This document shows positions 14,571 to 50,744 of a DNA stretch of 64,000 nt, piece by piece; the stretch's first letter is position 1, and each line of letters starts with the position of its first letter. Source of the DNA: Trueperaceae bacterium. GTDB lineage: Bacteria > Deinococcota > Deinococci > Deinococcales > Trueperaceae. The notes beneath the pieces are model-generated. The model was given only the letters and a program-made list of their open reading frames with translations. It made no database searches and was not told the origin of the DNA. A program made the position numbers and the translations under genes. The stretch lies in assembly GCA_965215565.1 (NCBI GenBank), contig CBDCDZ010000004.1, positions 3,200,001-3,264,000 on the forward strand. Reading direction: 5' to 3'.

Positions 14571-14754
14571 TAGCAGGTATCATCTGGTCAGAAACACTAT
14601 CACTTTTTAGAACATCGTTTCCTTCGGAAAACTGCGTAAGCAGCACGCACATTCTGAGATGAAATCCCGCAACGGCAGGGCGGCCTGCCCGTAACGCTAG
14701 TCCTTACGGACAGAGATCTGCGCTCATCCGTCTCAGTGTGGTTTGGAACTGCTA
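14571..14754 (+). mobile_element. MITE-like family copy A
   Basis: tagcaggtatcatctgg...ggaactgcta; about 70 bp identical to copy B; TTT on both flanks. Confidence 0.85.
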
Positions 14755-14755
14755 T

Positions 14756-15079
14756 TTATAAAACTGCCTGCAACGTCCACAGCGCCACCATGCCCGCCAC
14801 AATGGTCCAGATAATGCTCTTGCTGTAAAACGCCACGACGCCCGCGAAAAGTCCCGCTAACAGCTTCTCGTTGGTGAGGGTGAGCACTAAGTCTCCCTCA
14901 CGGAAGACGAGCGCGGGCACGACGATAGCGGAGAGCACGGCTGCGGGTACGAAGCGGAGCGCCCGCTGAACGAGGGGCGGCATCGCCAAGCGCCCCGCTA
15001 GCGCGATGAACGACGCGCGGAGCGCGAAAGTGATGAGCCCCATCAGAAGAATCGTCAGCCAGAGCGTTGGGGTGCTCAT
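14756..15079 (-). CDS. azlD: AzlD-family transporter small subunit
   Basis: ITFALRASF, FVPAAVLSAIV; ATG 15079 overlaps azlC stop. Confidence 0.85.
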   Translation of the reverse strand: MSTPTLWLTILLMGLITFALRASFIALAGRLAMPPLVQRALRFVPAAVLSAIVVPALVFREGDLVLTLTNEKLLAGLFAGVVAFYSKSIIWTIVAGMVALWTLQAVL

Positions 15080-15783
15080 GGGCGCGCCTCTTCGGTCTCT
15101 GCCGCTTTCACCGTCTCGACTAGCACGCCGACTCCGATGCCGACGAGCGCCGCGACGATGAGCGCCAGGTTGAAGGGCAAAGGGTCCGCGACGACGACGG
15201 TGACGCCCGCTGCGAGTGCCGCCGCCGCCGAAGCGCGGTCTGTTACAGCAGGAATGATGAGCACCATAAAGATGAGGGGGATGGCGAACTCCAAAGACCA
15301 CCCCTCGGGCACCTGCGCGCCGACGAACACGCCGATGATCGTGGAGATCATCCAGACGGCCCAGATAGGCGCAGCGACGCCCAGGTAAAAGAGGTTTTTG
15401 TAGGGCATGTCGGGCTCATCGGTGAAGCGGTTGACGCCAAAGGCGTACGCCTGATCCGTCATGAGGTACGCCATCAAGCCCTTCCAGGGTGCCGAAAAGC
15501 GCTCGAGAAAGGGCGCAATTGAGGCGCTGTACATCACGAAGCGCAGGTTGATAAACAAGGTAGTCATCAAAATAACAAAGACGGGCGAGCCCGACGCGAT
15601 GAGTTGCAAGCCCGCGAGCTGCGACGCGCCCGCGAAAACGATGGCGGAGAGCATCACGGCGGGCAGCTCGCTCAGCCCGACGCTCACCGCGCTCACCCCC
15701 GCGACGAGCCCAAAGGGAACGACGCCCAACATGACGGGTAAGCCTGTCTGAACGCCGGAGAGAAAGGTAGCTCTGGGGGTCAC
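15076..15783 (-). CDS. azlC: AzlC-family branched-chain amino acid exporter
   Basis: FAGASQ, INLRF, TDQAYA motifs. Confidence 0.9.
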   Translation of the reverse strand: MTPRATFLSGVQTGLPVMLGVVPFGLVAGVSAVSVGLSELPAVMLSAIVFAGASQLAGLQLIASGSPVFVILMTTLFINLRFVMYSASIAPFLERFSAPWKGLMAYLMTDQAYAFGVNRFTDEPDMPYKNLFYLGVAAPIWAVWMISTIIGVFVGAQVPEGWSLEFAIPLIFMVLIIPAVTDRASAAAALAAGVTVVVADPLPFNLALIVAALVGIGVGVLVETVKAAETEEARP

Positions 15784-15845
15784 GCCCTACCTTACGTCAC
15801 CTCAACCGTTTCTGAGTTCGTTTGGAATGCAAAACAGATTAACTC

Positions 15846-15936
15846 GTAGAGGCGGGTTTCAAACCCGCCCCCGCCATGTCGAGAAATTTCTTGTATCAGT
15901 GCGCCTGTGTAGGGGTGATTCATGAATCTTCCCTAC
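15846..15936. repeat. Pair of GTAG-type REP-like palindromes
   Basis: gtagaggcgggtttcaaacccgccc and gtaggggtgattcatgaatcttccctac. Confidence 0.75.
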
Positions 15937-15963
15937 TTCTTCAGAATGTGGCGAAAAGTGGCG

Positions 15964-16707
15964 TCAGGCTTGCTCGGTGGGCAGAATTAGAATCTCGTTG
16001 ACATTGACGCGGCTCGGGCTCGCTACCGCGTAGAGGATGGATTGGGCGATGTCTTCGGACTCGAGCATCGTCATGTTCATCATCCCCTTCATGCCCTCCA
16101 AGGCGTCCTCATCGGTGATGTGCTCCGTCAGCTCGGTCTCGACTGCGCCCGGCTCGATGCTCGTCACGCGGATGTGCTTGTTCGGCGCAAGCTCCTGGCG
16201 CAACCCTTCTGAAAAGGCGGTCACGGCAAACTTCGTCGCGCAGTAGACCGCGCCCGACTGCATCACTTTGCGGCCCGCCACGGACGAGATATTGACGATA
16301 TGTCCGCCCTCTTGCTCCATCATGGTGGGCAGCGCCGCCGCTGTCGCAAACATGAGCCCTTTGACGTTCACGTCCACCATCTGCTCCCACTCGTCGAGCT
16401 TGAGCTTCTCGACGAAGGAGAGCAGCATGACGCCCGCGTTGTTGACTAAGATGTCCACACTGCCAAAGGCGTCTTTGGCTTGTTGAATGAGGTTTTGCGT
16501 GTCCTCGCGCTTGGTGACGTCGGTCTCAACGACGAGCGCTTTGCCGCCGTTACCTTCGAGCTCGCTCTTGAGGTCTTCTAGGCGCTCCTTGCGCCGCGCT
16601 GCGAGCACGACGGCTGCGCCTTCGTTCGCCAACACCCTCGCCGTCGCCTCGCCGATGCCGCTCGAGGCTCCCGTAATCACCGCAACTTTGTTGTCTAAGC
16701 TTCCCAT
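15964..16707 (-). CDS. SDR-family oxidoreductase
   Basis: TGASSGIG, NNAG, YCATK; ATG 16707 follows AGGAG. Confidence 0.92.
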   Translation of the reverse strand: MGSLDNKVAVITGASSGIGEATARVLANEGAAVVLAARRKERLEDLKSELEGNGGKALVVETDVTKREDTQNLIQQAKDAFGSVDILVNNAGVMLLSFVEKLKLDEWEQMVDVNVKGLMFATAAALPTMMEQEGGHIVNISSVAGRKVMQSGAVYCATKFAVTAFSEGLRQELAPNKHIRVTSIEPGAVETELTEHITDEDALEGMKGMMNMTMLESEDIAQSILYAVASPSRVNVNEILILPTEQA

Positions 16708-16945
16708 GTTTGCTCCTCGCCCATATTCGTGAGTGTCGTTGCGCCGCCTCGTTCGTAAGGCGAAGCGGCGCACATTCGTGGTGGTAAGGTTGAACGCCTG
16801 TCAGGATAAATCTTGCGAATCCTGCGCAAGCGTCCTGCTCTCGGTGCGCTCTTCGTCGTCCGAATGACAATAAAGCGCCACGAGTACCTCCGCTGAGCCT
16901 AGCAAGAGAGTCGAAAAGGAACGTTGTGCTGTCTTCCAAACCATA

Positions 16946-16993
16946 GGGCGAGCCAAGAGGTCGACGTGAGCGTGGCAACCTCTTGGCTCGTCC
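16946..16993. terminator. Stable hairpin, possible terminator
   Basis: gggcgagccaagagg...cctcttggctcgtcc. Confidence 0.45.
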
Positions 16994-17031
16994 TTGCTGT
17001 GCCAGTCTAAAGTATGTCGATCTGAACGGTG

Positions 17032-17406
17032 TCAGTTTGAGGTGTTAGGAGAAACCTCTTCCGTATCCACAGCGGGTGTAGGCGTTTCCGAAACTGTCAC
17101 GTAGCGCGCCTCGTCCGCGTAGATAAAGCCCTGCAAGCGGGCGAGTTGCTCGCGGTAGGCGGGGTCGTTCTTGTGGGCGATGACGTTCTCTAGGTTCGTA
17201 GACTCACGTTCTAGCGCCGCGATATCGCGCTCCAAGCGGGCGACTTCGCGCTCTGTGTAAACGCTCCGGCTTATCTCCAAGGTGAGCATCGCGAGCGCGT
17301 GAATGCAGCCGACGACGGCGATGACTAGAAATAGGCTCGAGCCCTTGTCGGGTACCCTTTTGCCCTCTTTAGACTCTTTACGCTTGCGCCCTAAAGACCG
17401 AATCAT
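17032..17406 (-). CDS. Septum formation initiator (FtsB/DivIC-like) protein
   Basis: Single TM, coiled coil, DPAYREQLARLQGFI.ADE. Confidence 0.7.
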   Translation of the reverse strand: MIRSLGRKRKESKEGKRVPDKGSSLFLVIAVVGCIHALAMLTLEISRSVYTEREVARLERDIAALERESTNLENVIAHKNDPAYREQLARLQGFIYADEARYVTVSETPTPAVDTEEVSPNTSN

Positions 17407-17430
17407 AGTTTCCCCCCGCCCCTATACAGT

Positions 17431-18423
17431 CTACACATGAATGGTTCCTTGCAGCGCGAGGGCTTCTTTGAGAAAGCGGGCGGCGTCTTCGGGCGGCGTC
17501 GGGTTGATATAAAACCCGCTGCCCCAGTCGAAGCCTGCTTGCGCGGTGAGGCGCGGCAAGATTTCGATGTGCCAGTGGTAGCTCTCAGACTGCACGGGCA
17601 GCGCGTGCAAAATCATGTTATAGGGCGGAAAGTTGAGTGCCGTATTCATAGCGCTTAGCACCGATTGTAACAGGTCTGCCAAAAGAGGCAACGTATTGCT
17701 CGGCAACGTTGCAAAAGACGCGCTGTGGGCGCGGGGCAAGAGCCACACCTCGAAGGGCGTCTTCGAGGCGTAGGGCGCGAGTGCGACGAAGTGCGGGTTT
17801 GAGCTGATGAGGCGGCTCCGCTCGGTGCACTCCGCCCCGATCACGTCGCAAAAGAGGCAGCGCCCGTGCGCCCCGAAGTGGCGCGACGCGGCGGCGCATT
17901 CTTCGTCCACCCAGCGGTTGGTGACGGGCAGCGCCAGGAGCTGCGCGTGCGGGTGGTCGTACGCCGCGCCCGCCGAGCGCCCCACGTTGCGCGAGAGCTG
18001 CACGTGCTTGATACCGGGCTTCTGCGAGAGGAGCCCTATCCTGTCCCTGTAGAGTTTCAAGAGGTCGACGAGGTGCGCTTGCGACATGCCTTCTAAACGC
18101 ATGTCGTGTTGCGGATGCTCGGTGATGAGTTCTTGGTAGCCCACGCCCGAGGCGTAAGCGAAAAGGTCGTTCCCGCCCGTCCGAAATGCTCCTGGCGAGA
18201 GGAGCGCGGCGGGGTTTTCGGACACCCTCGCCTGCCAGGACGCACCGGCGCTCACTAGCGAGGGACTTAGCGTCCTTATCTCCTTCCCTCTTTCGTGACC
18301 GGGACAGAGCGCGCAGGGCGCGGGGGAATGCTTAGCGCTGCCGAAGTCCGAGGGCAAGAGCCCGCGCTCCGGGGAGATGATAACCCAGGCGGAGCCGAAG
18401 GGGTCTTTGCGAAACTGCGGCAT
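17431..18423 (-). CDS. galT: Galactose-1-phosphate uridylyltransferase family protein
   Basis: C.LCPG, HPHAQ catalytic motif, CLFCD, YHWHIEILPR. Confidence 0.85.
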   Translation of the reverse strand: MPQFRKDPFGSAWVIISPERGLLPSDFGSAKHSPAPCALCPGHERGKEIRTLSPSLVSAGASWQARVSENPAALLSPGAFRTGGNDLFAYASGVGYQELITEHPQHDMRLEGMSQAHLVDLLKLYRDRIGLLSQKPGIKHVQLSRNVGRSAGAAYDHPHAQLLALPVTNRWVDEECAAASRHFGAHGRCLFCDVIGAECTERSRLISSNPHFVALAPYASKTPFEVWLLPRAHSASFATLPSNTLPLLADLLQSVLSAMNTALNFPPYNMILHALPVQSESYHWHIEILPRLTAQAGFDWGSGFYINPTPPEDAARFLKEALALQGTIHV

Positions 18424-18537: not shown

Positions 18538-18697
18538 TAGTCAAGTCTCAGGCGGAGCCTAGCGGAACTTCATTTGGTTTGAAACGCAACCACTTTATTA
18601 AGCAGTGTTGCTAGGCAGCAAACTTGCGTAACTGGCAAGCGCATTCGAGAATGAAATCCCGCTAGTTCTTCGAACTGAGGCTTGCGCCATTCCGATC
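18538..18697 (+). mobile_element. MITE-like family copy E with three micro-inserts, right end degenerate
   Basis: Closely matches reverse complement of copy F (caagtctcaggcggagcctagc.gaacttcatttggtttga). Confidence 0.75.
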
Positions 18698-18701
18698 AGT
18701 A

Positions 18702-18818
18702 TAGCAGGTATCATCTGGTTTGAGACACGCCCACTAGATAAAACGACGTCTAGCGCGCACATTCGATGATAATACCTGCGCTCATCCGTCTCAGTCTCAG
18801 TATGTCTTGGAACTGCTA
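18702..18818 (+). mobile_element. MITE-like family copy C (insert-free core)
   Basis: tagcaggtatcatctgg...gataatacctgcgctcatccgtctcag...ggaactgcta; AGTA on both flanks. Confidence 0.85.
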
Positions 18819-20281: not shown

Positions 20282-20467
20282 TAGCAGTTCCACGACATAC
20301 TGGGACAGTTGAGCGCAGATCTCTGTCCGTAAGGACTAGCGTTACGGGCAGGCCGCCCTGCCGTTGCGGGATTTCATCTCTTAAAGTGCGTGCTAGTTAC
20401 GTAGTTTTCACGCAGTGAAACATCGTTTTACAAAGTGAGAGTGTCTCCGACCAGATGATACCTGCTA
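20282..20467 (-). mobile_element. MITE-like family copy B
   Basis: tagcagttcc...ccagatgatacctgcta; TAT on both flanks. Confidence 0.85.
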
Positions 20468-27243: not shown

Positions 27244-27250
27244 GTATTGC

Positions 27251-27360
27251 AGCAGTTCCACGACACACTGAGACAGTTGAACGCAGGTCTCATCTCTTAA
27301 AGTGCGTGCTAGACACCGCTTTCCAAAATGAGATTGTTTCAAACCAGATGATATTTGCTA
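27251..27360 (-). mobile_element. MITE-like family copy D (insert-free core)
   Basis: agcagttccacgacacactgagacagttga...ccagatgatatttgcta; close to copy B. Confidence 0.82.
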
Positions 27361-27409: not shown

Positions 27410-27436
27410 GTAAGGGTGGGTTTCAAACCCACCCCT
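27410..27436. repeat. REP-like palindrome
   Basis: gtaagggtgggtttcaaacccacccct. Confidence 0.7.
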
Positions 27437-29685: not shown

Positions 29686-29820
29686 TAGCAGGTAGCATCT
29701 GGTCATTAGCGCTCTCACTTGAGAAAACATTGTTTAGCGCTCACTTCAGGAGATGAAATTCCGCTATTGCTACGCAATGAGATCTGCGTGATACAAACTC
29801 AGTGATTTTGAAAAGCGCTG
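29686..29820 (+). mobile_element. MITE-like family copy I
   Basis: tagcaggtagcatctgg...gatctgcgtgatacaaactcagtgattttgaaaagcgctg. Confidence 0.75.
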
Positions 29821-29835: not shown

Positions 29836-30351
29836 ATGTCAGTTAAATCAGCCGAATCCGGTATTAACCCGCTCGAGTTTCGCAACACCTTGGGGCGCTT
29901 CGGCACGGGCGTCACCGTCGTCACCGTGCAACAAGGTGAAGAGGTCAGAGGTATCACCGTCAATGCGTTTATGTCGGTGTCGCTCGCGCCGCCCCTCGTT
30001 CTGGTCTCTATCGACAAAAGCGCCAACTCTCACGCGCTCTTAGCCTCGAGCGAGCGCTACGGCGTGAGCATTCTGAGCGAAGCGCAAGAGGCGATGAGCA
30101 ACCTCTTTGCGGGGCGTCCTGACGAGAGCATCGAAGTGCACTACGAGTACAAAGACGGTTTCCCGCTCATTCGCGGCGCGTTAGCGCACTTGGTTTGTAG
30201 AACAGTAGAGGCACATGAGGCAGGCGACCACACGCTCTATATTGGCGAGGTGGAACATTTGAGTTATCAGGACGGTAAGCCGCTGCTCTATTTCGGGGGG
30301 CGTTATGGACGGTTGGAGGTTCCTGCAAGGGAGCCCATTCTCGACGGTTAG
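29836..30351 (+). CDS. hpaC: Flavin reductase component of 4-HPA 3-monooxygenase
   Basis: FRNTLGRFGTGVTVVT, SVSLAPPLV, GDH; hpa context. Confidence 0.88.
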   Translation: MSVKSAESGINPLEFRNTLGRFGTGVTVVTVQQGEEVRGITVNAFMSVSLAPPLVLVSIDKSANSHALLASSERYGVSILSEAQEAMSNLFAGRPDESIEVHYEYKDGFPLIRGALAHLVCRTVEAHEAGDHTLYIGEVEHLSYQDGKPLLYFGGRYGRLEVPAREPILDG

Positions 30352-30377
30352 AAAAGTCAAAAAAGTTAGGAGAGGTT

Positions 30378-31289
30378 ATGCAACCCCTGAAAGGTTCGAT
30401 TGTCCCCTTACCAACACCCTTCACAGGCAGCGACGCCAAGGTTGACGAGGCAGCCTTAAAAGAGATTATCGAATTCCAACTCCGCGAAGGCTCACACGGT
30501 TTAGGTGTCACGGGCACGACGGGTGAACCCTCTTCGCTGAGTTTAGACGAGCGCAAGCACGTCGCGGAGTTCGTTTATCGAGAGGTCAATGGGCGCGTTC
30601 CAGTCATGCCGGGGACGGGCACGAATAATCTGGACGAGACCTTAGAACTTACCAAACACGCCGAATCTATCGGCGCGGACGCTGTCTTAATCATCAGCCC
30701 CTACTACATCAAGCCGAATCAAAACAGCCTCTTCGAATATTTTAGACGCATTGCTGACAGCGTACCCAACACGCCCGTCGTCCTCTACAACATTCCCGGA
30801 CGCACGGCGGTCAACATCGAACCGAAAACGATTGGACGACTCCGCGAAGCCTGCAAAAATATCGTCGGCGTGAAGCACGCAACGAAGAACTTGGACAACG
30901 TGTCTTACACCTTTGTTCATGCTGGAAGTGATTTCGGCGTCTACTGCGGCATGGAAACGCTCACATATCCGATGCTCGCTTTGGGCGGCTCCGGTCACGT
31001 GAGCGCGACGGGGGTGGTTGCGCCCAGGGAGATTGCCGAGCTGTACAACCGGGCAGCGGCGGGGGATTGGGATGGTGCGCGGGAGTTGCACTACAAGATG
31101 CTCGAGCTAAACGACATGCTGTTCATCGAGGTGAACCCTGTACCGCTTAAAACCGCCCTTTCCATGATGGGCTTGTGCGAGAAGAGGTGGCGCTTACCGC
31201 TTGGGCCGATGATGCCCGAGAATGAGGTTAAACTCAAGGAGACGTTGAAAAAATACGGAATTTTTGAGCGCGCCGGGGTAAGTGCGTAA
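30378..31289 (+). CDS. hpaI: DapA-like 2,4-dihydroxyhept-2-enedioate aldolase
   Basis: GTTGEP, LYNIPGRT, VGVK; inside hpa cluster. Confidence 0.8.
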   Translation: MQPLKGSIVPLPTPFTGSDAKVDEAALKEIIEFQLREGSHGLGVTGTTGEPSSLSLDERKHVAEFVYREVNGRVPVMPGTGTNNLDETLELTKHAESIGADAVLIISPYYIKPNQNSLFEYFRRIADSVPNTPVVLYNIPGRTAVNIEPKTIGRLREACKNIVGVKHATKNLDNVSYTFVHAGSDFGVYCGMETLTYPMLALGGSGHVSATGVVAPREIAELYNRAAAGDWDGARELHYKMLELNDMLFIEVNPVPLKTALSMMGLCEKRWRLPLGPMMPENEVKLKETLKKYGIFERAGVSA

Positions 31290-31344
31290 AGAGGTGCGTG
31301 CAGTTGTCAGTGAACCTCAATATTAAGGAAGTTAGGAGGTTGTT

Positions 31345-31803
31345 ATCCCAACCCTCATTCATCAACGAGTACGTGCTGCCCACCGAGGTGACAATCCTAC
31401 AGTCATTTGCCGCGTTCCCTCGGGTTGGGTTGTGCTAGGCGACCAGCAACATCTCTACGGGTACTGTTTGCTTCTGCCTGACCCGGTGGTTTACGACCTC
31501 AACGCTCTGACTACGCAGGTACGTGTCCAGTATCTGAGCGACATGGCGGTTGTCGGCGACGCGCTTCTAGAGGTCACGGACGCCTACCGAATCAACTATT
31601 CCGTGCTAGGCAATACCGACCCCGCCTTGCACGCGCATATCAGACCGAGGTACATGTCTGAGCCTGAAGAGAAGCGCAAAGGTCCGGTCTACCTGAGTTA
31701 CAACGCCGAAGAGAGACACTCACGTCCTTTCGATGTAGAGAGAGATCAACCTCTTATGGACGAATTAGCAGCGTTTATAGAACGAAAGGTACAGCGTCTA
31801 TGA
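31345..31803 (+). CDS. HIT-family protein, apparent ATC start
   Basis: GWVVLGD.Q..GY.LLL, RINYSVLGN..PALHAHI.PRY; frame open upstream to TAG 31333. Confidence 0.7.
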   Translation: MPTLIHQRVRAAHRGDNPTVICRVPSGWVVLGDQQHLYGYCLLLPDPVVYDLNALTTQVRVQYLSDMAVVGDALLEVTDAYRINYSVLGNTDPALHAHIRPRYMSEPEEKRKGPVYLSYNAEERHSRPFDVERDQPLMDELAAFIERKVQRL

Positions 31804-32582
31804 AACACGCCAGAGTCATCGTCAACGGACACTACGAAGAGGTGTTGATCGAAGACAACCAAGTCGTCACCGCGTCTGGGCAGCGTTACAAACAAAATGA
31901 GGTGACGTGGCTGCCGCCTGTCGAGCCAGGCACCATCCTCGCGCTCGCTTTGAACTACGGCGATCACGCCACCGAACTCGACTTAGAACGCCCCGACGTT
32001 CCCGCGCTCTTTCCGAAACTGCGCAACGCTTTAACGGGTCACTTGGGCAACATCGTCAAACCGCACGGCGTCGAGTATATGCACTACGAAAACGAACTCG
32101 CGCTCATCATCGGTAGACCGGCGCGGCGCGTTAGAGCTGAGAACGCTCTGAATTACGTTAAAGGCTATACGGTTGCGAATGATTTAGTCGTCCGCGACTT
32201 CGTCATCAACCACTTCCGCCCGCCGATTAAGCCCAAAAACTTTGACACCTTTTTACCGCTCGGTCCCTGGTGGGTAGACGCCGCCGACATCCCCGACCCG
32301 CATAACTTGAAGCTCACCACGCACGTCAACGGCGCGTTGCGGCAAGAGGGCACGACCCGCGACATGCTCTACAACATCCCTGAAATCATCGAATACGTCT
32401 CCGAATTCATGACCTTGCAAGAGAACGACATTATCCTTACAGGAACGCCGAAAGGGATTTCGCACGTGCATCCAGGAGATGAGATTCGCTGTGAGATTGA
32501 AAGCGTAGGGGTCTTAGAGAATAAGGTGGTAGAGGAGAGGCTCGAGTCCGCTACTCCTCAGAAAAAAGAGGTGAACGCATGA
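31800..32582 (+). CDS. hpaG: FAH-family isomerase/decarboxylase (single HpaG-type domain)
   Basis: ALNY.DH, HYENEL, AND, KNFDTF.PLGP, TGTP.G. Confidence 0.85.
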   Translation: MKHARVIVNGHYEEVLIEDNQVVTASGQRYKQNEVTWLPPVEPGTILALALNYGDHATELDLERPDVPALFPKLRNALTGHLGNIVKPHGVEYMHYENELALIIGRPARRVRAENALNYVKGYTVANDLVVRDFVINHFRPPIKPKNFDTFLPLGPWWVDAADIPDPHNLKLTTHVNGALRQEGTTRDMLYNIPEIIEYVSEFMTLQENDIILTGTPKGISHVHPGDEIRCEIESVGVLENKVVEERLESATPQKKEVNA

Positions 32583-34105
32583 GCGGCGCAGTTCCAGTCT
32601 TTAGCGAAAGTGCTGTCCATCAAGAGAAGGTCAAGCCGTTTCGTGAAAAGGTAGCTGAAAGAGGTATCAAGCACCTCATTAACGGCGAATGGGTTGCGTC
32701 CGCGTCGGGCGAGACCTTCGAAACGCTAAGCCCGGTTGACAACAGCGTCATCGCTGAGGTTGCGTCAGGAAATGAAGAGGATATTGACAAAGCTGCGAAA
32801 GCTGCTACCGAAGCCTTCAAAACGTGGCGCAACGTCTCCCCAAAAGAGCGCAAACGCCTGCTGCACCATGTGGCTGATTTGATTGAGGAAAGAGCCGAAG
32901 AAATCGCGCTCTTAGAAGTTCTCGACACGGGGCAGACGATTCGCTTCATGAGCAAAGCGGCGACTCGCGCCGCGCAGAACTTCCGCTTCTTCGCGGACAG
33001 GTGCGAGAGCGCGAGAGATGGCTCGAGCCTCCCTACAGACGAGCACCTCAACTACACCATCCGCCAACCTATCGGTCCGGTGGGCATCATCACCCCTTGG
33101 AACACACCTTTTATGCTCTCGACTTGGAAGATGGCTCCGGCACTCGCCGCAGGTTGCACTGTCGTCCATAAACCCGCTGAGTGGAGCCCGGTTACAGCGT
33201 CCTTGTTATCCGAGATTGTGCTCGAGGCGGGCATCCCCGCAGGCGTCGTCAACCTCGTCAACGGTTACGGCGAAACCGCAGGCAAGGCGCTCACCGAGCA
33301 CCCCGACATCAAAGCGGTGGCGTTCGTGGGCGAGTCGGTCACGGGGTCTCACATCATGGCGCAGGGCGCGGCGACCTTGAAGCGGGTGCATTTTGAGTTG
33401 GGTGGGAAGAATCCTGTTGTGGTCTTTGACGATGCGGACTTAGAACGCGCTCTTGACGCGGCGATGTTCATGATTTACAGCCTGAATGGGGAGCGGTGTA
33501 CCTCTTCTAGCCGCCTCTTGGTCCAAGAATCCGTGTACCACGACTTCACCGCCAAACTCGCCCAACGCGCCAAGAATATCACCGTCGGCGACCCCTTCGA
33601 CCCTGCTACGGACATCGGTCCTTTAATTCATCCTAAGCATTTAGAAAAGGTTATGAGTTATATGGCTTTGGCAAGGGACGAAGGCGCAACCGTCGCCGCT
33701 GGCGGTGAGAACGTTTCAGGGAATTTGATTAACGCCACCCTTTTTACGGGTGCAAAGAACGACATGCGCATCGCCCAAGAGGAGATTTTCGGTCCCGTCC
33801 TCACGGCGATACCTTTCAAAGATGAAGCCGAAGCCTTAGAGCTTGCCAACGGTGTCCGCTACGGGCTCGCGGCTTACCTCTGGACGAAGGACGTGACCCG
33901 CGCCCACCGCTTCGCGCAAAACTTAGACGCGGGCATGGTCTGGGTCAACTCGCAGAACGTCCGCCATTTGCCCACGCCTTTTGGCGGGATGAAGGCGTCG
34001 GGTGTCGGGCGTGACGGGGGCGATTACTCGTTTGACTTTTATATGGAGACGAAGAACATCGCGGTGGCGTTGGGGGAGCATAGAATTCCGAAGTTAGGCG
34101 TGTGA
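32579..34105 (+). CDS. hpaE: 5-carboxymethyl-2-hydroxymuconate semialdehyde dehydrogenase
   Basis: PWNTPFML, ELGGK, NGERC, NSQNVRHLPTPFGG. Confidence 0.93.
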   Translation: MSGAVPVFSESAVHQEKVKPFREKVAERGIKHLINGEWVASASGETFETLSPVDNSVIAEVASGNEEDIDKAAKAATEAFKTWRNVSPKERKRLLHHVADLIEERAEEIALLEVLDTGQTIRFMSKAATRAAQNFRFFADRCESARDGSSLPTDEHLNYTIRQPIGPVGIITPWNTPFMLSTWKMAPALAAGCTVVHKPAEWSPVTASLLSEIVLEAGIPAGVVNLVNGYGETAGKALTEHPDIKAVAFVGESVTGSHIMAQGAATLKRVHFELGGKNPVVVFDDADLERALDAAMFMIYSLNGERCTSSSRLLVQESVYHDFTAKLAQRAKNITVGDPFDPATDIGPLIHPKHLEKVMSYMALARDEGATVAAGGENVSGNLINATLFTGAKNDMRIAQEEIFGPVLTAIPFKDEAEALELANGVRYGLAAYLWTKDVTRAHRFAQNLDAGMVWVNSQNVRHLPTPFGGMKASGVGRDGGDYSFDFYMETKNIAVALGEHRIPKLGV

Positions 34106-34113
34106 GGAGGTGG

Positions 34114-34380
34114 ATGATGGGAAGAGTGATTGAGCTAGAACTCGAGACTGACGAAAACGGTGAACTTCATCTGACGAAAGAGCAGCTTGGTGAGGTTGCG
34201 CCAAACGTGCGCTTTAAGGTTAGCGCGGAGCCGCTAGAGGAGACGCCGCGTTTTGGTCCTGAGTGGGCGAACTTAACGCCCGAGGAGCGTGTAAAAGATT
34301 TGCGTGAACTCGTCAAAACGTTTGGAGAAGGTCCCGGACTCTCTGATTGGGCGGTGAGCCGTGACTCCATTTACGACTGA
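34114..34380 (+). CDS. Putative antitoxin of the adjacent PIN toxin
   Basis: C-terminal LSDWAVSRDSIYD; stop overlaps toxin start (TGATG). Confidence 0.7.
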   Translation: MMGRVIELELETDENGELHLTKEQLGEVAPNVRFKVSAEPLEETPRFGPEWANLTPEERVKDLRELVKTFGEGPGLSDWAVSRDSIYD

Positions 34381-34832
34381 TGCCGCGCTACCTGATGGAT
34401 ACGAACATCTTGCTCCGCTACGCGGACACGGGTGCTGAGCAACATCCGCTCATTATGGAGGCACTAGAAACGCTCGCGCTACGTCAGGATGAGGTTGTGA
34501 TGGTTCCACAAACCATCTATGAGTTTTGGAGTGTGGTGACGCGCCCAGCGGATAAAAACGGTTTGGGTTGGGCGACGGCGAAAGTAAGCACAGTGGTAGA
34601 CCGAGTGAGTAAGAGGTTTCCGCTCCTTCCAGATATGCAGGGCGTATTTGTGAACTGGCTCGAGCTTGTCACCCGACACGATGTGAAAGGCAAACAAGTC
34701 CACGACGCCCGTTTAGTCGCCGCGATGCAAACGCACGATGTAAAGAATCTTTTAACGCTGAATATCAAAGATTTCGAGAGATATTCGGAGCTTGAAGCGG
34801 TTCATCCAAGCTCTATAGAGGAGCAACGCTAA
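34380..34832 (+). CDS. vapC: PIN-domain toxin (VapC-like)
   Basis: DTNILLR, EFW, GKQVHDARLVA, LTLN.KDF. Confidence 0.88.
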   Translation: MPRYLMDTNILLRYADTGAEQHPLIMEALETLALRQDEVVMVPQTIYEFWSVVTRPADKNGLGWATAKVSTVVDRVSKRFPLLPDMQGVFVNWLELVTRHDVKGKQVHDARLVAAMQTHDVKNLLTLNIKDFERYSELEAVHPSSIEEQR

Positions 34833-34834
34833 GT

Positions 34835-35209
34835 ATGGCGCGACTTCAGCACATCGCCCTTCAAACGAACGATTTGGAGCAAACACGAGCGTTCTACAAA
34901 GTGCTGGGTTTAGAGGAAGCTAATTACGACGCTAACATCGGGCGGTTATGGCTGAATTTGGAAGACGGGTTCACCCTCATCTTTGACCGCTCAGAGGAAA
35001 CGCTTTCTGCTTCGACGGTTAAGTATCTGGGTCTCGAGTTACCCGACTTCAAAGCGGTTGACCGGATGTACGAAAAGTTAGCACCGCAAGCTGAGATGGG
35101 ACGCGATATGAGAGAGCTTTACAGCCATAAGCAAGGACCCTACGGCTTTTTCATCCAAGACCCGAACGGTTACACCATCAAAGTTTTCAAATACAACTAC
35201 ATCAAGTAA
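34835..35209 (+). CDS. VOC/glyoxalase-family protein
   Basis: HIALQT.DLE...FY, FFIQDPNG. Confidence 0.8.
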   Translation: MARLQHIALQTNDLEQTRAFYKVLGLEEANYDANIGRLWLNLEDGFTLIFDRSEETLSASTVKYLGLELPDFKAVDRMYEKLAPQAEMGRDMRELYSHKQGPYGFFIQDPNGYTIKVFKYNYIK

Positions 35210-35304
35210 GAGGTTTAACTTTCCACTCAGCACTCGTCACTTTCAACTTCCTAAGCTAATACCTAACCGCTAAAAGCTAATCGCCTCTCCTGAAAGGAGC
35301 CAAA

Positions 35305-36792
35305 ATGCCCGCACGCACCGGCCAACAATTCCTAGAAGGTCTCAAACGAAACCCGCCGAATATCTATATAGACGGCGAGAAAATCGAAGACCCCACCATC
35401 CACATCTACACCAAAAACGCCGCCGCCAGCATCGCCAAGCTCTATGATTTGCAGCACGAGCCTGAGTTACGCGACACGATGACCTACGAAAGCCCAACGA
35501 CGGGCGATAGAGTAGGACTGAGCTTTTTAGAGCCTAAGTCGAGGGAGGACTTAGAGCGACGCGCACAGATGCACAAAGTCTGGGCGGACGCCTCTTTGGG
35601 CTTTATCGGACGCGCCCCCGACTACATGAACGTGAACCTGATGGCGGCGGCGAAGGCGGCGCAGTACTTCGACCAGGGCGACCCGCGCTTTGGCGAGAAT
35701 ATGAAGTCGTACTACGAGTACGTCCGTGAAAACGACCTTTGTCTGACCCATGCCTTGACGAATCCGCAGGTGAACCGGGAGGCAAGGGCAGACCAACTCG
35801 ACGATCCGTACATCGCGTTAGGACTCGTAAAAGAGACGGATGAGGGCATCGTCGTGCGCGGGGCGCGGATGATGGCAACGTTGCCCATCGCTGACGAAAT
35901 CCTCATCTTCCCCTCGACGGTTCTCAAAGAGCAAGAGGAGTTGACGCGCTACGCTTTAGCCTTCGCTATGCCGACGAACACGCCGGGCTTATCGTTCCAG
36001 TGCCGCGAACCGCTCGACATCGGGCGGAGCCACGAGGACCATCCTTTGGGCTCCCGCTTCGACGAACTCGACGCGATGGTTATCTTTGACGACGTGCTCG
36101 TCCCCTGGGATAGAGTCTTTATTATCAACGACGTGAAGCTCGCTAACCGCGCCTACGGCACGACGGGCGCGGTCTACCACATGGCGCATCAAGTCGTGAA
36201 CGTCAAAATCGCTAAAACCGAGGCGTTTTTGGGCGTGGCGCAGTCCATCGTGGAGATGATCGGTTCGGCGCGGTTTCAGCACGTGCAGCAGAAGGTGGCG
36301 GAAATCATCATTAACTTAGAGGTGATGAAAGCGCTCAAAGTCGCCAGTGAGCAGGGCGCGATGCTGGACGAATACGGCACCATGACGCCCGCCAAAGGCC
36401 CTTTGAACGCCGCTCGCAACCTCTACCCACAGCTCTATCCGCGCATGGCAGAGGTCATCCAACTCTTGAGCGCCTCGGGCATCATCATGATTCCTACCGA
36501 GAAGGATCGCAAGGGACCGATGGGCGACAATATTTCTAAGTTCTTGCAGGCGAGAGGTGCCAACAGTGACGAGCGCATCAAACTCTACCGCTTAGCGTGG
36601 GACATGACCATTTCATCCTTCGGCGCTCGCCAAAACTTGTATGAGAAGTTCTTCTTCGGCGACCCGGTGCGGACGCAGTGTGCACTGTACGAGAACTACG
36701 ACAAGGAGCCTTATGTGGAGAGGATTAAGGCGTTTTTGGAGCGGAGTGATGAGACAGTTAATGAAGCTGTATCGGCGGTTTCAGCGGATTAG
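35305..36792 (+). CDS. hpaB: 4-hydroxyphenylacetate 3-monooxygenase, oxygenase component
   Basis: [40 protein letters not shown]. Confidence 0.95.
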
Positions 36793-36799
36793 AGCGATC

Positions 36800-37786
36800 A
36801 TGCCTATCAAACAAGCCAACACCAACCCACCTTTCAACATCATCCGCCTCAGCCACTTGGAACTCGGCGTGACGGATTTGGAACGCTCCAAGGCTTTTTA
36901 CGTGGACGCTCTAGGATTAGTCGAAACCGAACGCTCAGGAGACTCTCTTTACTTGCGGGGGCTCGAGGAGCGCAACCACCACTCCATCATCCTGAGCCAG
37001 ACCGACACGCCCATATGCCGCCGCCTCGCTTACAAAGTCGGTAGTGAGGAGGATTTGGATAGAGCCAAAGCGTTCTTTCGGGAGAGAGATTTAGAGCCGC
37101 AGTGGGTAGAGCGCCACGCGCAGGGGCGTACTTTAGAGGTCCGTGATCCGTTCGGGGTTCCTTTGGAGTTTTACTACCAGATGGACCAAGTTGAACGCCG
37201 ACTCCAGCATTACGGTGAATACCAGGGCGCACAAATTATGAGGATTGACCACTTCAACCTCTTCGCCTCGGATTTGCAAGGTACACACGACTTCTACGCG
37301 GGCGAGCTGGGTTTTCGCACGACGGAATACACCGAAACTGAAGGCGATAACCCTAAGCTGTGGGCGGTCTGGATGCACCGTAAAGGCAATGTCCATGATT
37401 TAGCTTTGACAAATGGGCGTGGACCCCGCTTGCATCACCTCGGCGTGTGGGTTCCGACTGCCATGAATATCATCCACTGCTGCGACGTGCTAGCGACAAC
37501 GGGGTATGTGGACGCCTTAGAGCGCGGTCCCGGACGACACGGCATCTCGAACGCCTTCTTTCTCTACATCCGCGACCCCGACGGACACCGCACCGAACTC
37601 TTCACCAGCGACTACCTCACCGTAGACCCCGACTTCGAGCCGATTCGCTGGACTTTGAACGACCCGCAGCGCCAGACCTTGTGGGGTGCGCCTGCGCCGA
37701 AAACGTGGTTTGAGGAGGGGACGCCGTTTGAAGAGGTAGAGGTGAAAGAGCCTCTTATGGCGGCGCGTCCGGTGGTGGCGGTCTAA
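36800..37786 (+). CDS. hpaD: Homoprotocatechuate 2,3-dioxygenase
   Basis: RIDHFN, VHDLA, HHLG, ERGPGRHGISNAFFLY.RDPDGH; ATG 36800. Confidence 0.93.
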   Translation: MPIKQANTNPPFNIIRLSHLELGVTDLERSKAFYVDALGLVETERSGDSLYLRGLEERNHHSIILSQTDTPICRRLAYKVGSEEDLDRAKAFFRERDLEPQWVERHAQGRTLEVRDPFGVPLEFYYQMDQVERRLQHYGEYQGAQIMRIDHFNLFASDLQGTHDFYAGELGFRTTEYTETEGDNPKLWAVWMHRKGNVHDLALTNGRGPRLHHLGVWVPTAMNIIHCCDVLATTGYVDALERGPGRHGISNAFFLYIRDPDGHRTELFTSDYLTVDPDFEPIRWTLNDPQRQTLWGAPAPKTWFEEGTPFEEVEVKEPLMAARPVVAV

Positions 37787-46898: not shown

Positions 46899-46900
46899 AA

Positions 46901-46972
46901 GCAGCAATGAGTTGAAAATAGCGAGCAATGAGCATTGAAGTTCCACTTTTTGCTCGTTGCTCATTGCTGTTT
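46901..46972. repeat. GAGCAAT heptamer inverted array
   Basis: gcagcaatgag..gcgagcaatgagca opposed to tgctcgttgctcattgctg. Confidence 0.75.
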
Positions 46973-46982
46973 TCCTCCTTGG

Positions 46983-47180
46983 AGCAGTTCCATTTATCAT
47001 TGCTGCACTTCTCCGCAAATCTCAGCCTGTCAAGGTTAGCGGAACTTCATCCCTGAAAGTGCGTGCTAGGCGATGTTCTCTTTAGTAAGAGCGTTGCTTC
47101 GCTTACGAAGTTTCCCTCCGGGAATGGCTTCGCCCAAGCTGACCAGATGATTGAGCGAAGCTATACGAAGTAACCTGCTA
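46983..47180 (-). mobile_element. MITE-like family copy H with micro-inserts
   Basis: agcagttcc...aaagtgcgtgctag...ccagatgat[insert]acctgcta. Confidence 0.78.
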
Positions 47181-47240
47181 TTACATTCTTCACGCCGGGT
47201 GTCCGCGCTATACTGGCGGACACATGAAAGAGGTGAAGTG

Positions 47241-48089
47241 GTGAGTACAGTTCCAAGTATCACGTTAAATAGCGGCAAGACGATTCCGCAGCTCGGCTTC
47301 GGCACGTATCAGATCAAACCCGAGAACGCGGTGGAGGCGGTCAGCAAGGCGCTCGAGGTGGGCTACCGCCATATCGACACCGCGCAGATGTACGGCAACG
47401 AGAAAGAGGTCGGCGAGGCGATTCACGCTTTTAGCGCGGACCGGAGCGAGGTTTTCGTCACGAGCAAGCTCAACAACGGCTTTCACGAACCGGACGACGC
47501 GCGCCGGTCATTCGACGAGACGCTCTCCAAGCTCGGCGTTGAGTACGTAGACCTCTTTCTCATCCACTGGCCCCTGCCGACACGCTACGGCGGCGACTAC
47601 GTCTCGACGTGGCAGACCTTAGAGGAGTTCTACCGTGACGGACGCGCGCGCTCGGTCGGCGTGTCGAACTTTCAGGTCGCGCACCTAGAGCGGCTCGCCG
47701 CCGAGAGCGAGACCGTGCCCGCCGTGAACCAGATCGAGGCGCACCCTTACTTTCTCAACGGTGAGGTGCGCGCTTACGGTCAAGAACACGACATCGAGAC
47801 CGAGGCGTGGTCGCCCATCGCACAAGGGGAAGTCCTAGACGACGCCACGATCACGAGCATCGCAGAAGAGGTCGGTAAGACGCCCGCGCAGGTGGTGTTG
47901 CGCTGGCACATCCAACGCGGCGACATTGTGTTTCCCAAGTCGGTAACGCCCTCGCGCATCGAGGAGAACTTCGCGATCTTCGACTTCGAGTTGGATTCCG
48001 GCGCTATGGATAAGATCAGCGCCTTGGGCAAGGGCGAGGCGGGACGCACCGGACCGAACCCGGACGAGTTCGACTACATCCCGGACTAA
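47241..48089 (+). CDS. Aldo/keto reductase (2,5-DKG reductase-like)
   Basis: GYRHIDTAQMYGNE, LIHWP, GVSNF, PKSV; GTG after GAGGTG. Confidence 0.92.
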   Translation: MSTVPSITLNSGKTIPQLGFGTYQIKPENAVEAVSKALEVGYRHIDTAQMYGNEKEVGEAIHAFSADRSEVFVTSKLNNGFHEPDDARRSFDETLSKLGVEYVDLFLIHWPLPTRYGGDYVSTWQTLEEFYRDGRARSVGVSNFQVAHLERLAAESETVPAVNQIEAHPYFLNGEVRAYGQEHDIETEAWSPIAQGEVLDDATITSIAEEVGKTPAQVVLRWHIQRGDIVFPKSVTPSRIEENFAIFDFELDSGAMDKISALGKGEAGRTGPNPDEFDYIPD

Positions 48090-48113
48090 GAGGGATCAGG
48101 TTAAGAGGAGAGC

Positions 48114-48566
48114 TTACCGCTTCTGCCGAAAGTTCCGAATCTTCGCCGTGATGATGAAGTCGCCCTCAAAGAGGTAAAACTCCTGCAACTCGAGACCCTC
48201 CACCTGCTGGTTCATGAGCGACTGAATATCTAGGAGCAGCTTGGGCTCACGCTCGCCGCGCTGAATGCGAATGCCCTCGGGTAAGGGGATGCGCTCGGTG
48301 ATGAGGTTGAGGAGGCGGTGCAGCGGGATAATGTAAACGTTGGTGGCGAGGTCAAAGGTGGCGACGCCCGCCGCAAAAGAGCGAAAGGTCAGCTCGAGCC
48401 TGATTTTCGGCGCGATTCGGTGTAGCGCCTGGGGCAGCGAGGTCTTGGGGTCGATCGTGACATGGACGGTGTTACCTTGCGCGATGATGCGCTCGATTTG
48501 CGGCGGGAGCGGCTTGTCACTCGTGGCGAGGTCTATCGCTTCGGGAAAGGGCAAGACGAGCTGCAT
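48114..48566 (-). CDS. Hypothetical protein, third gene of recF operon
   Basis: ORF directly abuts DUF721 stop. Confidence 0.65.
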   Translation of the reverse strand: MQLVLPFPEAIDLATSDKPLPPQIERIIAQGNTVHVTIDPKTSLPQALHRIAPKIRLELTFRSFAAGVATFDLATNVYIIPLHRLLNLITERIPLPEGIRIQRGEREPKLLLDIQSLMNQQVEGLELQEFYLFEGDFIITAKIRNFRQKR

Positions 48567-49409
48567 CTAGTGCCACCGCCCCAACGCTCTGGCGACTCTC
48601 GCGTCGAGCCGGTCAAAGTCAGCCTCTGAAATCTCGCTCAAGGGTTTCTCCAAGAGGTGCGCCAAGTAGCAGCGGGCGGCGCTCTCTAGGTGCGGCCTAT
48701 AGGTGGGGTCCGCGAGCACGTGCGGGAGGAGTTCTTGCAGCTTCTCTTTGAGGTACGCTCTCGCGAGATAGGCCGCCACGTGCCGCTCGTCGTCGCTCAG
48801 CATGGGCGTCGCTTGGGCGGGGTCAAGCGCGAGTTGATGGCTCGCACGTTGGATGAGGCGTGAGCCGCTGTAGCGCGTGCACACCGTGCAGAGTGCGCCA
48901 CTTCCAATTAGCGTTTCGCAGACCGTACAAGGGGTCCAACCTTCGGACAAGCGCCTCGAGCGGTACGCGAGCATCGCTTTGGCGGCTTGCATAGTGGGTC
49001 TGGAGAGGTCGTCGGGCAAATCCAACTGACCGAGTTGACGCGCGAGCGTCGCCAAGGCCTTAGGGTCAACGGGCGCTTCGGGGGGCTTCTCTTTAGGCGC
49101 ATCCGGCGGAGCCTGCCGCCCCACCCGGAAGCGCACCTCTTTGATGTCCTTCACGCCGAACTTCGCCCGGTAGACGTTCAAGAATTTCTGCCGCTGAAAG
49201 CTCAGGTGCATCGCCGTCTCCGAGTCGGGCACCTCGACGAAGAGCGTGCCGTCCTGGACGCTCCGCGCGGTGGTGAACCTGGCGACGTTTGCGCCGACGA
49301 CTTGGGGCCATAAGAGCACCGCTTCGGCGCGTCTGACGCCGCGCCGCATCCCGCCGCGCTTAAAGACTTCGGCGAGCACGTCGGCGACGTTGCTCGGTTT
49401 ATTCGTCAT
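48567..49409 (-). CDS. DUF721 (DciA-like) protein with zinc ribbon
   Basis: WPQVVG..VA.FT; CTVC twice; overlaps recF stop. Confidence 0.8.
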   Translation of the reverse strand: MTNKPSNVADVLAEVFKRGGMRRGVRRAEAVLLWPQVVGANVARFTTARSVQDGTLFVEVPDSETAMHLSFQRQKFLNVYRAKFGVKDIKEVRFRVGRQAPPDAPKEKPPEAPVDPKALATLARQLGQLDLPDDLSRPTMQAAKAMLAYRSRRLSEGWTPCTVCETLIGSGALCTVCTRYSGSRLIQRASHQLALDPAQATPMLSDDERHVAAYLARAYLKEKLQELLPHVLADPTYRPHLESAARCYLAHLLEKPLSEISEADFDRLDARVARALGRWH

Positions 49410-50449
49410 GATCTATCCACATTGACCTGACCCCCTGATACAAAAAAATGTTTCGCTGCGTGCGGCGGCGCTTCGGTGCCACTTACCAGTGCCTGCGGCG
49501 TATTCGCGGCGAGCGAGAGGAGAAACTCGCGTCGCCCCGCGTCGAGTTCGGCGGTGAAGTCGTCCAGGAGGAGCACGGGCGCTTCGCGGTGTTTTTCGTT
49601 CAAGAGCCTGTACTCGGCGACGCGCAGGGCCAACGCGGCGGTGCGTGCTTCGCCGCGAGAGCCGTACGCCTGCACGCTGTAGCCGTTTAGCGTCAACACG
49701 AGATCATCGCGGTGGGGTCCCACGACGGTGACGCCGCGAGCGCGCTCTTCGTCTTCACTCGCGAGGAGCGCCGTTTCTAAAGCCGGTCCCTCTGCGCTCG
49801 CTAAACTCACGCCGAGTTCTTTATCCTGCCCCGATATCTCCGCGTAGCTCGCTCTGGCGATGTCGCAAATGCGCCCCACCGCCCGCTCCCTGAGCGCCAT
49901 GATTTCACCGCCCAGTTCCACAAAGCGCTCCGTCCACACGCTCAGCGTCGGGTCAACCCTCTTCAAGCTCGCGTTGCGCTGTTCCACCACCCGATTATAC
50001 TCGCGGCTGAGGAGCGCGTAGCGGTACGAGAGGCGACTCAGCAGCGAGTCGAGGTAGTGCCGCCGCGCCGAGGGCGAGCCGTGGACCATGTCGGCGTCCT
50101 CAGGCGTGACGAGCACCGCCGCCGCGACTTTGGCAAGCTCAAAGGTCCGCACGTTCTGCCCGTCTAAGCGGATCACCTTGCGCCCCGGCGCGAGCCCGAT
50201 CTGCGTCGTGCTGACGCCATCATCCCGCTCGATTTGGGCACTCACGAAGCCCTCCTCCTCACCGATGCGCACCGTCTCGGCGATTTTACCGCCCGGCAGT
50301 TCGCCCGTGCAGCCCAGATACACCGCCTCTAACACGTTCGACTTGCCCGCCGCGTTGCGCCCGACGATGGCGTTGACACCGGGGGAGAACTCGAGCCTCG
50401 GCGTCCGCAAATTGCGGTAGTTGAGTTGCGACAGCGACAGCAGGAGCAC
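49406..50449 (-). CDS. recF: DNA replication/repair protein RecF
   Basis: NYRN, GRNAAGKSN, GPHRDD, SRGE, LLDDFTAELD. Confidence 0.95.
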   Translation of the reverse strand: MLLLSLSQLNYRNLRTPRLEFSPGVNAIVGRNAAGKSNVLEAVYLGCTGELPGGKIAETVRIGEEEGFVSAQIERDDGVSTTQIGLAPGRKVIRLDGQNVRTFELAKVAAAVLVTPEDADMVHGSPSARRHYLDSLLSRLSYRYALLSREYNRVVEQRNASLKRVDPTLSVWTERFVELGGEIMALRERAVGRICDIARASYAEISGQDKELGVSLASAEGPALETALLASEDEERARGVTVVGPHRDDLVLTLNGYSVQAYGSRGEARTAALALRVAEYRLLNEKHREAPVLLLDDFTAELDAGRREFLLSLAANTPQALVSGTEAPPHAAKHFFVSGGQVNVDRS

Positions 50450-50544
50450 GGCGTAGTGTAACCGAGAAGTAGGGAGGAGGAAAAGTAAGAGACGTGCAGG
50501 CTTCGCACCTCTTGTTCCTTAATTTCTACTTCTTACTCTACCTT

Positions 50545-50744
50545 TAGCACTTTCAAAACATACTGAGACGGATGAGTACAGGTTTCGGCTCGCAGACCGA
50601 TTCCGCTAGGCTTTGCCTGAGAGCGGGATTTCATCACCAAATGTATGTGCCAATTACGAAGTTTTCGCAAAGCGAAACAGTATCTCTTACAGTGAAAGTA
50701 TTTCTAACCAGACGATTGCGTGAAGCTTCCGAAGGAACCTGCTA
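50545..50744 (-). mobile_element. MITE-like family copy G with micro-inserts
   Basis: tagcactttc..catactgagacggatgag...acctgcta; CTT on both flanks. Confidence 0.8.

Follow-up and report, generated by a model that had tools for sequence, protein, structure and literature searches.

Small dispersed repeats (SDRs) are very small mobile repeats of cyanobacteria, reportedly described by Elhai et al. in 2008. To our knowledge, how they move has been an open question since 2008. Excerpts of four papers describe SDR5 of the Nostocaceae as a 21-nt repeat inserted precisely between bases 3 and 4 of HIP1 (GCG^ATCGC) (PMC4390886, PMC13756078, PMC5861425, PMC3116915), and in 2026 the function of the cyanobacterial very small repeats was still termed unknown in the available part of one of them (PMC13756078). 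Here we describe a mobile unit of 21–24 nt, built of two mini-hairpins, in a genome of the Trueperaceae (G000; 4.49 Mb, 58% GC, 99.99% complete). The unit was studied in a stretch of 64,000 nt (the window; G000:C4:3200001-3264000), across the genome, and in two congeners that also carry it, G001 and G002. Our literature searches turned up no account of such units in Trueperaceae, nor any paper that names an SDR enzyme; the available parts of three further papers (PMC2884548, PMC4476775, 10.64898/2026.09.22.753630) had no bearing on the unit.

An earlier note on the window, made from the letters alone, had quoted five copies of a hairpin motif and proposed a separately mobile, structure-selected unit lying mostly in the middle of copies of a MITE (a miniature inverted-repeat transposable element). 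All five motifs are present at the positions and on the strands it gave. TTACGNAGTTT occurs four times in the window against 0.06 expected, a count reached in none of 100 shuffles, and the fifth quoted copy has a loop of 4 nt (TTACGCAAGTTT). The hairpin motif is real; the final A that the note had counted in it is target DNA and lies outside the unit. Ends were set by a register test on 180 descriptor hits, a broad set with some chance matches among them: the unit was cut out at five registers and the joined flanks were sought elsewhere. Removal at offset 0 recreates an empty site for 119 of the 180 hits, and removal at each other offset for one or two. Because empty sites are recreated at one register only, the unit is the head plus hairpin 2: 21–24 nt of non-coding DNA (a 10–11-nt head and a second hairpin of 4–5 bp), beginning with a 5′ T and ending at the foot of hairpin 2 (corrected spans in Table 1). 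No base is shared at 78 of the 119 junctions and at most two at 113; three or more are shared at six, tandem copies among these.

Four of the quoted copies do stand in the middle of a MITE, at its position 63; the copy at 47103 instead interrupts a sister unit that runs on the opposite strand, and the middle site of its MITE is empty, with G instead of A after the cut point. Ten MITE middle sites were found in the window, four filled and six empty. The copy at 11986 (TTATGTAATC-TTGC-GAA-GCAA), which the note had called free, is a genuine compensatory variant but sits inside a second repeat family; its site has nine empty versions in the genome, one of them in the window.

Pairing is kept while stem sequence varies, as the note had read from its few copies. 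The paired-unit set holds fully paired flank-captured units and their neighbours within two changes (75 + 21 = 96 distinct); 96–97% of its stem positions are Watson–Crick against 72–75% with shuffled arms, a fraction inflated by construction, as the set was seeded on perfectly paired units, though this does not affect the ratio of G-T to A-C. Among the 21 distinct imperfect units the broken pairs, read on the unit's own strand, are G-T in 19, A-C in one and another in one (p 4e-5). Strand-symmetric mutation should yield G-T and A-C equally, and units occur on both strands of the MITE; the bias therefore suggests that a single strand folds, or that it mutates when single-stranded. With the excess of pairing over the arm-shuffled control, it bears out selection on structure. 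The head too is a covarying mini-hairpin, not a fixed sequence (AC-GNA-GT, AG-GCA-CT, AT-GTA-AT), with a 2-bp stem and a GNA or GNNA loop. In 331 intergenic hits the head stems are AC/GT (204), GC/GC (67), AT/AT (15), AG/CT (12) and GT/AC (8), and the head loop is GNA in 272. An unbiased scan of the chromosome for filled and empty pairs gave 626 indel groups of 14–32 nt with a peak at 21 nt (159), and makes the note's family one branch of a larger set, T-N(1-2)-XY-GN(N)A-Y'X'-N(1-2)-stem-loop-stem before A. Mini-hairpins of the GCGNAGC/GCGNNAGC kind are described, in the available part of PMC13037366, as far stabler in DNA than in RNA, nuclease-resistant and poorly bound by single-stranded-DNA-binding protein (SSB).

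The head TTACGNAGTT occurs 170 times genome-wide, followed in 104 cases by a perfect hairpin. A genome-wide descriptor scan, which the note had proposed, returned 101 hits in its strict form against 5–7 in five chromosome block shuffles, and 412 chromosome hits in its broad form against about 92–110 expected from two 1-Mb shuffles. The broad descriptor gave 27 hits in 224 kb of G001 (control 2–5) and 25 in 221 kb of G002 (control 3–10), regions chosen around known hits. The pattern matches 80 times in G000, 55 in G002 and 40 in G001; none of the 361 other genomes searched in the phylum has more than one match, and the same holds for the reversed control. (This tally, and those given below for the hicA ortholog, the sister type, PF09250 and PF05635, include one unpublished genome, G327, on which no claim rests.) A 21-nt sister type is found additionally in G267 (5) and G361 (1) among 128 genomes of the family, all six inside the same kind of MITE. 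In five genomes checked for breadth the head motif was not clearly above the reversed control (1 vs 0, 4 vs 14, 4 vs 1, 12 vs 14, 6 vs 16). Six of 31 motif matches in a contig collection lie outside Trueperaceae, several being one long plain hairpin, and two scans of viral contigs gave 0 and 15 scattered single matches.

The main host of the unit is a 111-bp repeat with ends TAGCAG...CTGCTA, of which 216 full copies were extracted, 78 at exactly the empty length; longer copies aligned to the empty profile show discrete inserts at fixed positions. At least ten target sequence classes have an empty allele. Two copies of the unit lie in genes, with no repeat around them. At G000:C4:643214 a 24-nt unit stands in frame in a hicA-like gene (HicA match 23.7 bits, below the Pfam cut-off of 27; a hicB gene lies downstream), and in G002 the ortholog is closely alignable to the left and right of the unit, with precisely these 24 bases missing. 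The second copy, at C4:3663906, is 21 nt long and in frame, and gives a small open reading frame (ORF) 7 more residues; the G001 ortholog is without them, the junction being less sharp because ortholog identity is only about 70%. Contigs of four sequencing runs showed no joint skipping the unit at the hicA locus, although two runs gave no cover there and contigs drop rare variants. Among MITEs, gain and loss have recurred: a tree of 100 backbones (49 of them filled, and 51 sampled from 127 empty) requires 24 changes of state, monophyly of the filled copies is rejected (approximately unbiased test, p-AU 9.5e-43), 35 of the 49 are nearer an empty copy than a copy bearing another unit, and backbones 2–3 bases apart bear units differing in length and stem. 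The unit is thus real, structure-constrained and separately mobile; the note's own counter-case, a motif confined to the MITE and derived from one ancestral insertion, does not describe these unrelated targets, gene copies and non-monophyletic filled MITEs.

The insertion contexts, which the note had suggested tabulating, are MITE positions 35 and 63, sister units, two heptamer-type repeat families, a REP-like family, the two genes, and the unit itself, in its own loop on either strand and at its own 3′ junction. Among the 119 validated copies the cut is followed by A in 114, and the next base along is C in 77; on the 5′ side of the cut the base is free (G 48, A 40, C 30, T 1). At MITE position 63, where copies are related and not independent, A follows the cut in all 94 filled copies and in 171 of the 279 that are empty. 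In 64 target clusters, which contain chance hits and some mis-set ends, position +1 is A in 45, +2 is C in 39 and +3 is G in 40; −6 to −1 show no strong preference, G being commonest at −1 (30/64). Base pairing between head and target was rejected as the basis of this rule: heads with GC/GC or AG/CT stems also insert before AC.

Other small inserts share these sites. A family of 17–22 nt, composed of a TCTGAAAG or TCCGTAGG head and a hairpin, has TT^ACG in the unit itself as its insertion site, and tandem copies occur (for example in the G000:C4 MITEs at 2492478 and 3556116). A different family occupies MITE position 40, with 52 copies there genome-wide: a hairpin followed by TAGCGG[GA]A[TC]T, 20–25 nt in all, at 20320-20375, 14665-14716, 47020-47045 and 29761-29782 in the window, itself carrying a 27-nt nested insert with a GGGCAGGCCGCCCTGCCC-like palindromic core. 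Over the whole length of the G000:C4 chromosome, CCAGTYRAGCTGG sites followed by T (filled) number 25 on the plus and 4 on the minus strand, as against 8 and 10 for the remaining sites (post hoc Fisher p 0.004); the skew is absent in G001 (19 vs 14).

The unit may well move as folded single-stranded DNA that is cut and rejoined by a trans-acting, probably HUH-type, enzyme, a reading we hold with moderate confidence. Both mini-hairpins, with their GNA or GNNA loops, would form on one strand and be recognised, and the enzyme would cut before T at the left end and before A at the right. The target might need little beyond ^AC(G), so that the donor's own 3′ junction and loop would also be targets, giving nests and tandems; the MITE and other repeats would then multiply copies passively, and in genes only the in-frame copies of 21 and 24 nt would survive. 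We favour single-strand cutting and joining because it accounts for the fixed ends, the lack of duplication, the one active strand and the self-targeting at the 3′ junction. That an HUH enzyme can recognise short perfect hairpins and cleave at CA as well as CT is shown by a group 3 TnpA-REP, according to the accessible part of PMC8266576.

Several observations weigh against this route. Known HUH enzymes of the single-tyrosine (Y1) type choose bases 5′ of the cut through a guide tetranucleotide (available part of PMC8266576), and a free base before the cut with a fixed base after it is poorly explained in that way. The Y1 domain (PF01797) was found in G000 only as 100 residues within a 1319-aa restriction-modification protein and not at all in G001 or G002, and the four Y1 loci of G267 and two of G005 that were examined had no adjoining units. 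Of the 12 commonest units, ViennaRNA with DNA parameters folds only 3 into both hairpins and leaves the AC/GT head mostly unfolded; the extreme mini-hairpin stability in the portion of PMC13037366 at hand applies to G-C closed loops; loop 1 is sometimes ANA in the congeners, and loop 2 is often not GNA (TCC, CCC, TTTT). No excised or circular form was observed. Orientation to replication is not consistent: outside MITEs, 27–29 of 44 G000 loci fall in one strand class (p 0.05–0.17, origin at dnaA or at the skew minimum); a fourth origin placement gives 25/44 (p 0.45), and G001 shows the opposite trend (20/33). On G000:C4, dnaA lies at 2.67 Mb and cumulative GC skew has its minimum at 3.15 Mb and its maximum at 0.29 Mb; genes have no strand bias. 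The restriction-modification protein is of the Eco57I/N6-methylase kind, with its Y1 transposase-like domain at residues 707–811 (L058, G000:C4:3784707-3788666).

The search for a partner enzyme covered further families. GIY-YIG (PF01541) is present in all five genomes searched and was rejected, the stand-alone G000 gene having no adjoining units; MITEs beside the GIY-YIG gene lie on different sides in G001 and G002 and are absent in G000. The Prim-Pol family PF09250, in 11 of 81 family genomes, was set aside, none of the three carriers having it. So was the four-helix-bundle family PF05635, which all three carriers have but also 14 of the other 78, and whose five viewed loci are flanked by tandem-repeat arms, not units. 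These genes (L209 at G000:C4:1308119, L210, L211, L213, L214) stand between inverted arms built of short, tandemly repeated words (GGACTGA, AGCAATG and others), and the same words make up host repeats of the unit. Around the 17 densest clusters of units in G000 the adjoining genes are unrelated, and multi-copy ORF families (our own ORF calls, 3825 proteins, not scanned against Pfam) yielded no partner gene. In G002 a small GIY-YIG gene (L145, G002:C10:214214-214426) follows an array of GTCA...TGAC hairpin repeats and is, by eye, Ssn/SRM-like. This Ssn-looking gene with its repeats is seen only in G002 and those repeats also in G000 and G001, and repeat-tied enzymes can therefore be transient.

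Host replication or repair could instead do the work, capturing a nuclease-resistant, SSB-excluding two-hairpin oligonucleotide as a primer or folded flap that is ligated at a lagging-strand or repriming junction; we consider this unlikely. It would give A as the next base because primers start with a purine, would also explain the lack of duplication, and needs no element-specific enzyme. It fits the specificity 3′ of the junction (A, then C), the several targets just after a hairpin or inside a GNA loop, and the mini-hairpins described at primase sites of single-stranded DNA phages and at ssiA, with their poor SSB binding (available part of PMC13037366). A slight excess of units on the discontinuously made strand in G000 agrees with it but does not recur in G001, a fixed 5′ T with a fixed 2–3-nt leader is left unexplained, universal host enzymes do not account for a unit confined to three congeners among 364 genomes, and Prim-Pol, as said, is missing from the carriers.

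A route through RNA, with the unit cut from and joined into transcripts, or reverse-transcribed and integrated, seems to us decidedly improbable. The tolerance of G-T is also compatible with G-U pairing, both in-gene copies are on the sense strand, and G001 has four reverse transcriptase genes of 618–637 aa. The reverse transcriptase family PF00078 is found in G001 and G267 but has no match in the nearly complete G000, in G002 or in G005, and the three loci examined have no units within 1.5 kb. Between co-directional genes there is no sense bias (24 vs 21 outside MITEs, 75 vs 63 inside); most loops have 3 nt, a length that makes for weak RNA hairpins; RNA parameters fold none of the 12 commonest units into both hairpins on their own strand; and the window has no Rfam match at gathering score.

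Less probable still is that a few ancient insertions were followed by MITE copying and gene conversion only, the covariation arising from palindrome-correcting template switches. Of 300 intergenic units 228 have MITE context, and the orthologous spacers in G001 and G002 lack the MITEs of the window, so that whole MITEs have moved with their cargo and much of the spread is hitch-hiking; the six sister-type units of G267 and G361 agree with this. Most intergenic copies were thus probably multiplied by the MITE, copying and conversion likely contribute to copy number, and conversion among MITE copies could mimic repeated insertion at one site, though not the two gene copies. As the sole cause the idea is refuted: it does not explain the non-homologous sites or the copies in hicA and the second gene, and template switching would neither yield more G-T than A-C on a single strand nor exchange both bases in a stem of 2 bp. 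Least probable of all are host signals under cell selection (terminators, RNA-stability or protein-binding hairpins), which would suit the 168 of 180 hits outside called ORFs but not the lack of orientation to transcription, the patchy presence among near-identical MITE backbones or the two interrupted genes.

With G000 a second phylum joins the cyanobacteria, and the rules can be stated explicitly: the exact ends of the unit, a target rule of one base, the active strand and the stem swaps that are allowed. It also offers natural in-frame insertions of 7–8 residues into proteins. The rules define a substrate for binding, cleavage or circle-detection assays and a signature for profiling candidate enzymes; a dedicated enzyme, if one exists, would insert about 21 bases without a scar.

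Table 1. Units, sister units and host repeats in the window (window coordinates)
Feature	Position	Strand	Context
Two-hairpin unit, 21 nt (TT-AC-GCA-GT-T-TTCC-GAA-GGAA)	14619..14639	-	MITE position 63, target GCTGC^ACG
Two-hairpin unit, 23 nt (TT-AC-GCAA-GT-T-TGCT-GCCT-AGCA)	18609..18631	-	MITE position 63, target GCCAG^ACA
Two-hairpin unit, 23 nt (TT-AC-GTA-GT-T-TTCAC-GCA-GTGAA)	20397..20419	+	MITE position 63, target GCTAG^ACA; 8 empty genome matches
Two-hairpin unit, 21 nt (TT-AC-GAA-GT-T-TCCC-TCC-GGGA)	47103..47123	+	Inside sister unit, target GCTTCGC^ATG; 7 empty matches
Two-hairpin unit, 23 nt (TT-AC-GAA-GT-T-TTCGC-AAA-GCGAA)	50654..50676	+	MITE position 63, target GCCAA^ACA
Variant unit, 21 nt, compensatory head (TT-AT-GTA-AT-C-TTGC-GAA-GCAA)	11986..12006	+	Second repeat family, target GCTGG^ACG; 9 empty matches
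Empty allele of 11986 site	14381..14405	+	Cut point at about 14393/14394
Sister 21-nt unit, TGG-GC-GAA-GC-CA-TGC-GAA-GCA type	47095..47136	-	MITE position 88; split by 47103 unit
Sister 21-nt unit TGA-GC-GAA-GC-TA-TAC-GAA-GTA	47152..47172	+	MITE right end, before ACCTGCTA
Sister 20-nt unit TGC-GT-GAA-GC-T-TCC-GAA-GGA	50717..50736	+	Before ACCTGCTA
Host MITE copy (111-bp backbone TAGCAG...CTGCTA plus inserts)	14571..14754	-	
Host MITE copy	20282..20467	+	
Host MITE copy	46982..47180	+	Position 63 empty (G after cut point); units at 88 and right end
Host MITE copy	50545..50744	+	
Empty 111-bp MITE copy, uninserted-state reference	27250..27360	+	
MITE copy empty at position 63	18702..18818	-	Adjoins copy bearing 18609 unit

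The window also holds a 4-hydroxyphenylacetate/homoprotocatechuate degradation cluster (29836-37786; HpaC-like reductase, HpaI aldolase, HpaD dioxygenase) and a direct duplication (1-473 and 1546-2018, spacing 1545 bases, 75–86% identical). GTA[AG]-headed REP-like hairpins of the GGGCGGGTTTCAAACCCGCCC type lie at 15846-15871, 27410-27435 and 63764-63789; no stand-alone gene for a REP-associated tyrosine transposase (RAYT) was found. A 312-aa ORF family has eight copies in the genome (G000:C4:1291047-1291985 and seven near copies).

Among known systems, the Ssn GIY-YIG nucleases with their NTS/SRM repeats resemble the unit in their strand-specific reading of a repeated single-stranded hairpin, and units are found inside such repeats; in the available part of PMC11893778, however, Ssn cuts and is not known to join, and its repeats are hosts here, not the unit. 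A MITE differs in having terminal inverted repeats and a target duplication; the unit has no such repeats and shares no base at most of its junctions, although its main host is MITE-like. With IS200/IS605 elements (IS608, ISDra2) the unit shares the absence of target duplication, two hairpins and one active strand (in part from PMC8266576). It has no transposase gene and no clear replication bias, its target is set by the base 3′ of the cut, the opposite polarity, and the 64 target clusters show no fixed 4–5-nt 5′ target. The repetitive extragenic palindromic sequences (REP and REPIN) mobilised by TnpA-REP (RAYT) are likewise short single-stranded hairpins that insert in frame into genes (excerpts of PMC8266576, PMC6006769, PMC3116915), and their HUH enzymes, which read bases of the loop, cut single-stranded DNA at CT and, in the case of one group 3 enzyme, at CA as well. 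The unit has no GTAG (GT[AG]G) foot, its heads being TTACGNAGTT and variants; it joins at N^T and N^A, where the base preceding the cut is free, in place of cleavage between C and T or C and A; it packs two hairpins into 21–24 nt; and no cognate Y1 HUH gene flanked by units accompanies it.

SDR5, as far as the excerpts on it go, is alike in its 21-nt size class (the 119 validated copies of the unit measure 21–24 nt), precise insertion directly before A, a recoverable empty allele and a mechanism without explanation; of the HIP1 target only the A after the cut is shared, the unit inserting at ^AC(G), ^AG, ^AA and ^AT. On the Nostoc punctiforme plasmid pNPUN01 the pattern GCG-N21-ATCGC occurs in 14 rows against 5 for the reversed control. 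Its HIP1-splitting 21-mers, such as TAG-GC-GTA-GC-CC-GCC-GTA-GGC, have a T leader, a 2-bp GNA hairpin, a short linker and a second GNA hairpin, the same two-hairpin layout as the unit, in three perfect and a few related units on this 354-kb plasmid; their size and position suggest that they are SDR5. A loose descriptor gave only 47 hits on the plasmid against 31–38 in shuffles, and its first 50 kb showed no enrichment (3 vs 1–9). The Nostoc units differ from ours, which has the TTACGNAGTT head, a second stem of 4–5 bp, and MITEs, heptamer repeats and genes of another phylum as hosts. We tentatively raise the possibility, somewhat against the balance of our own judgement, of a cross-phylum class of gene-less, single-stranded mobile DNAs of about 21 bases, defined only by the two-mini-hairpin fold and moved by an undescribed ^A-choosing chemistry, with SDR5 as another passenger; its enzyme would be the smallest-cargo, scarless single-strand inserter known, with a target choice the reverse of that of the IS200/IS605 and REP transposases. 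The HIP1 target is not shared and the Nostoc units seen differ in sequence, but the unit works like an SDR and shares its layout, in a second phylum.

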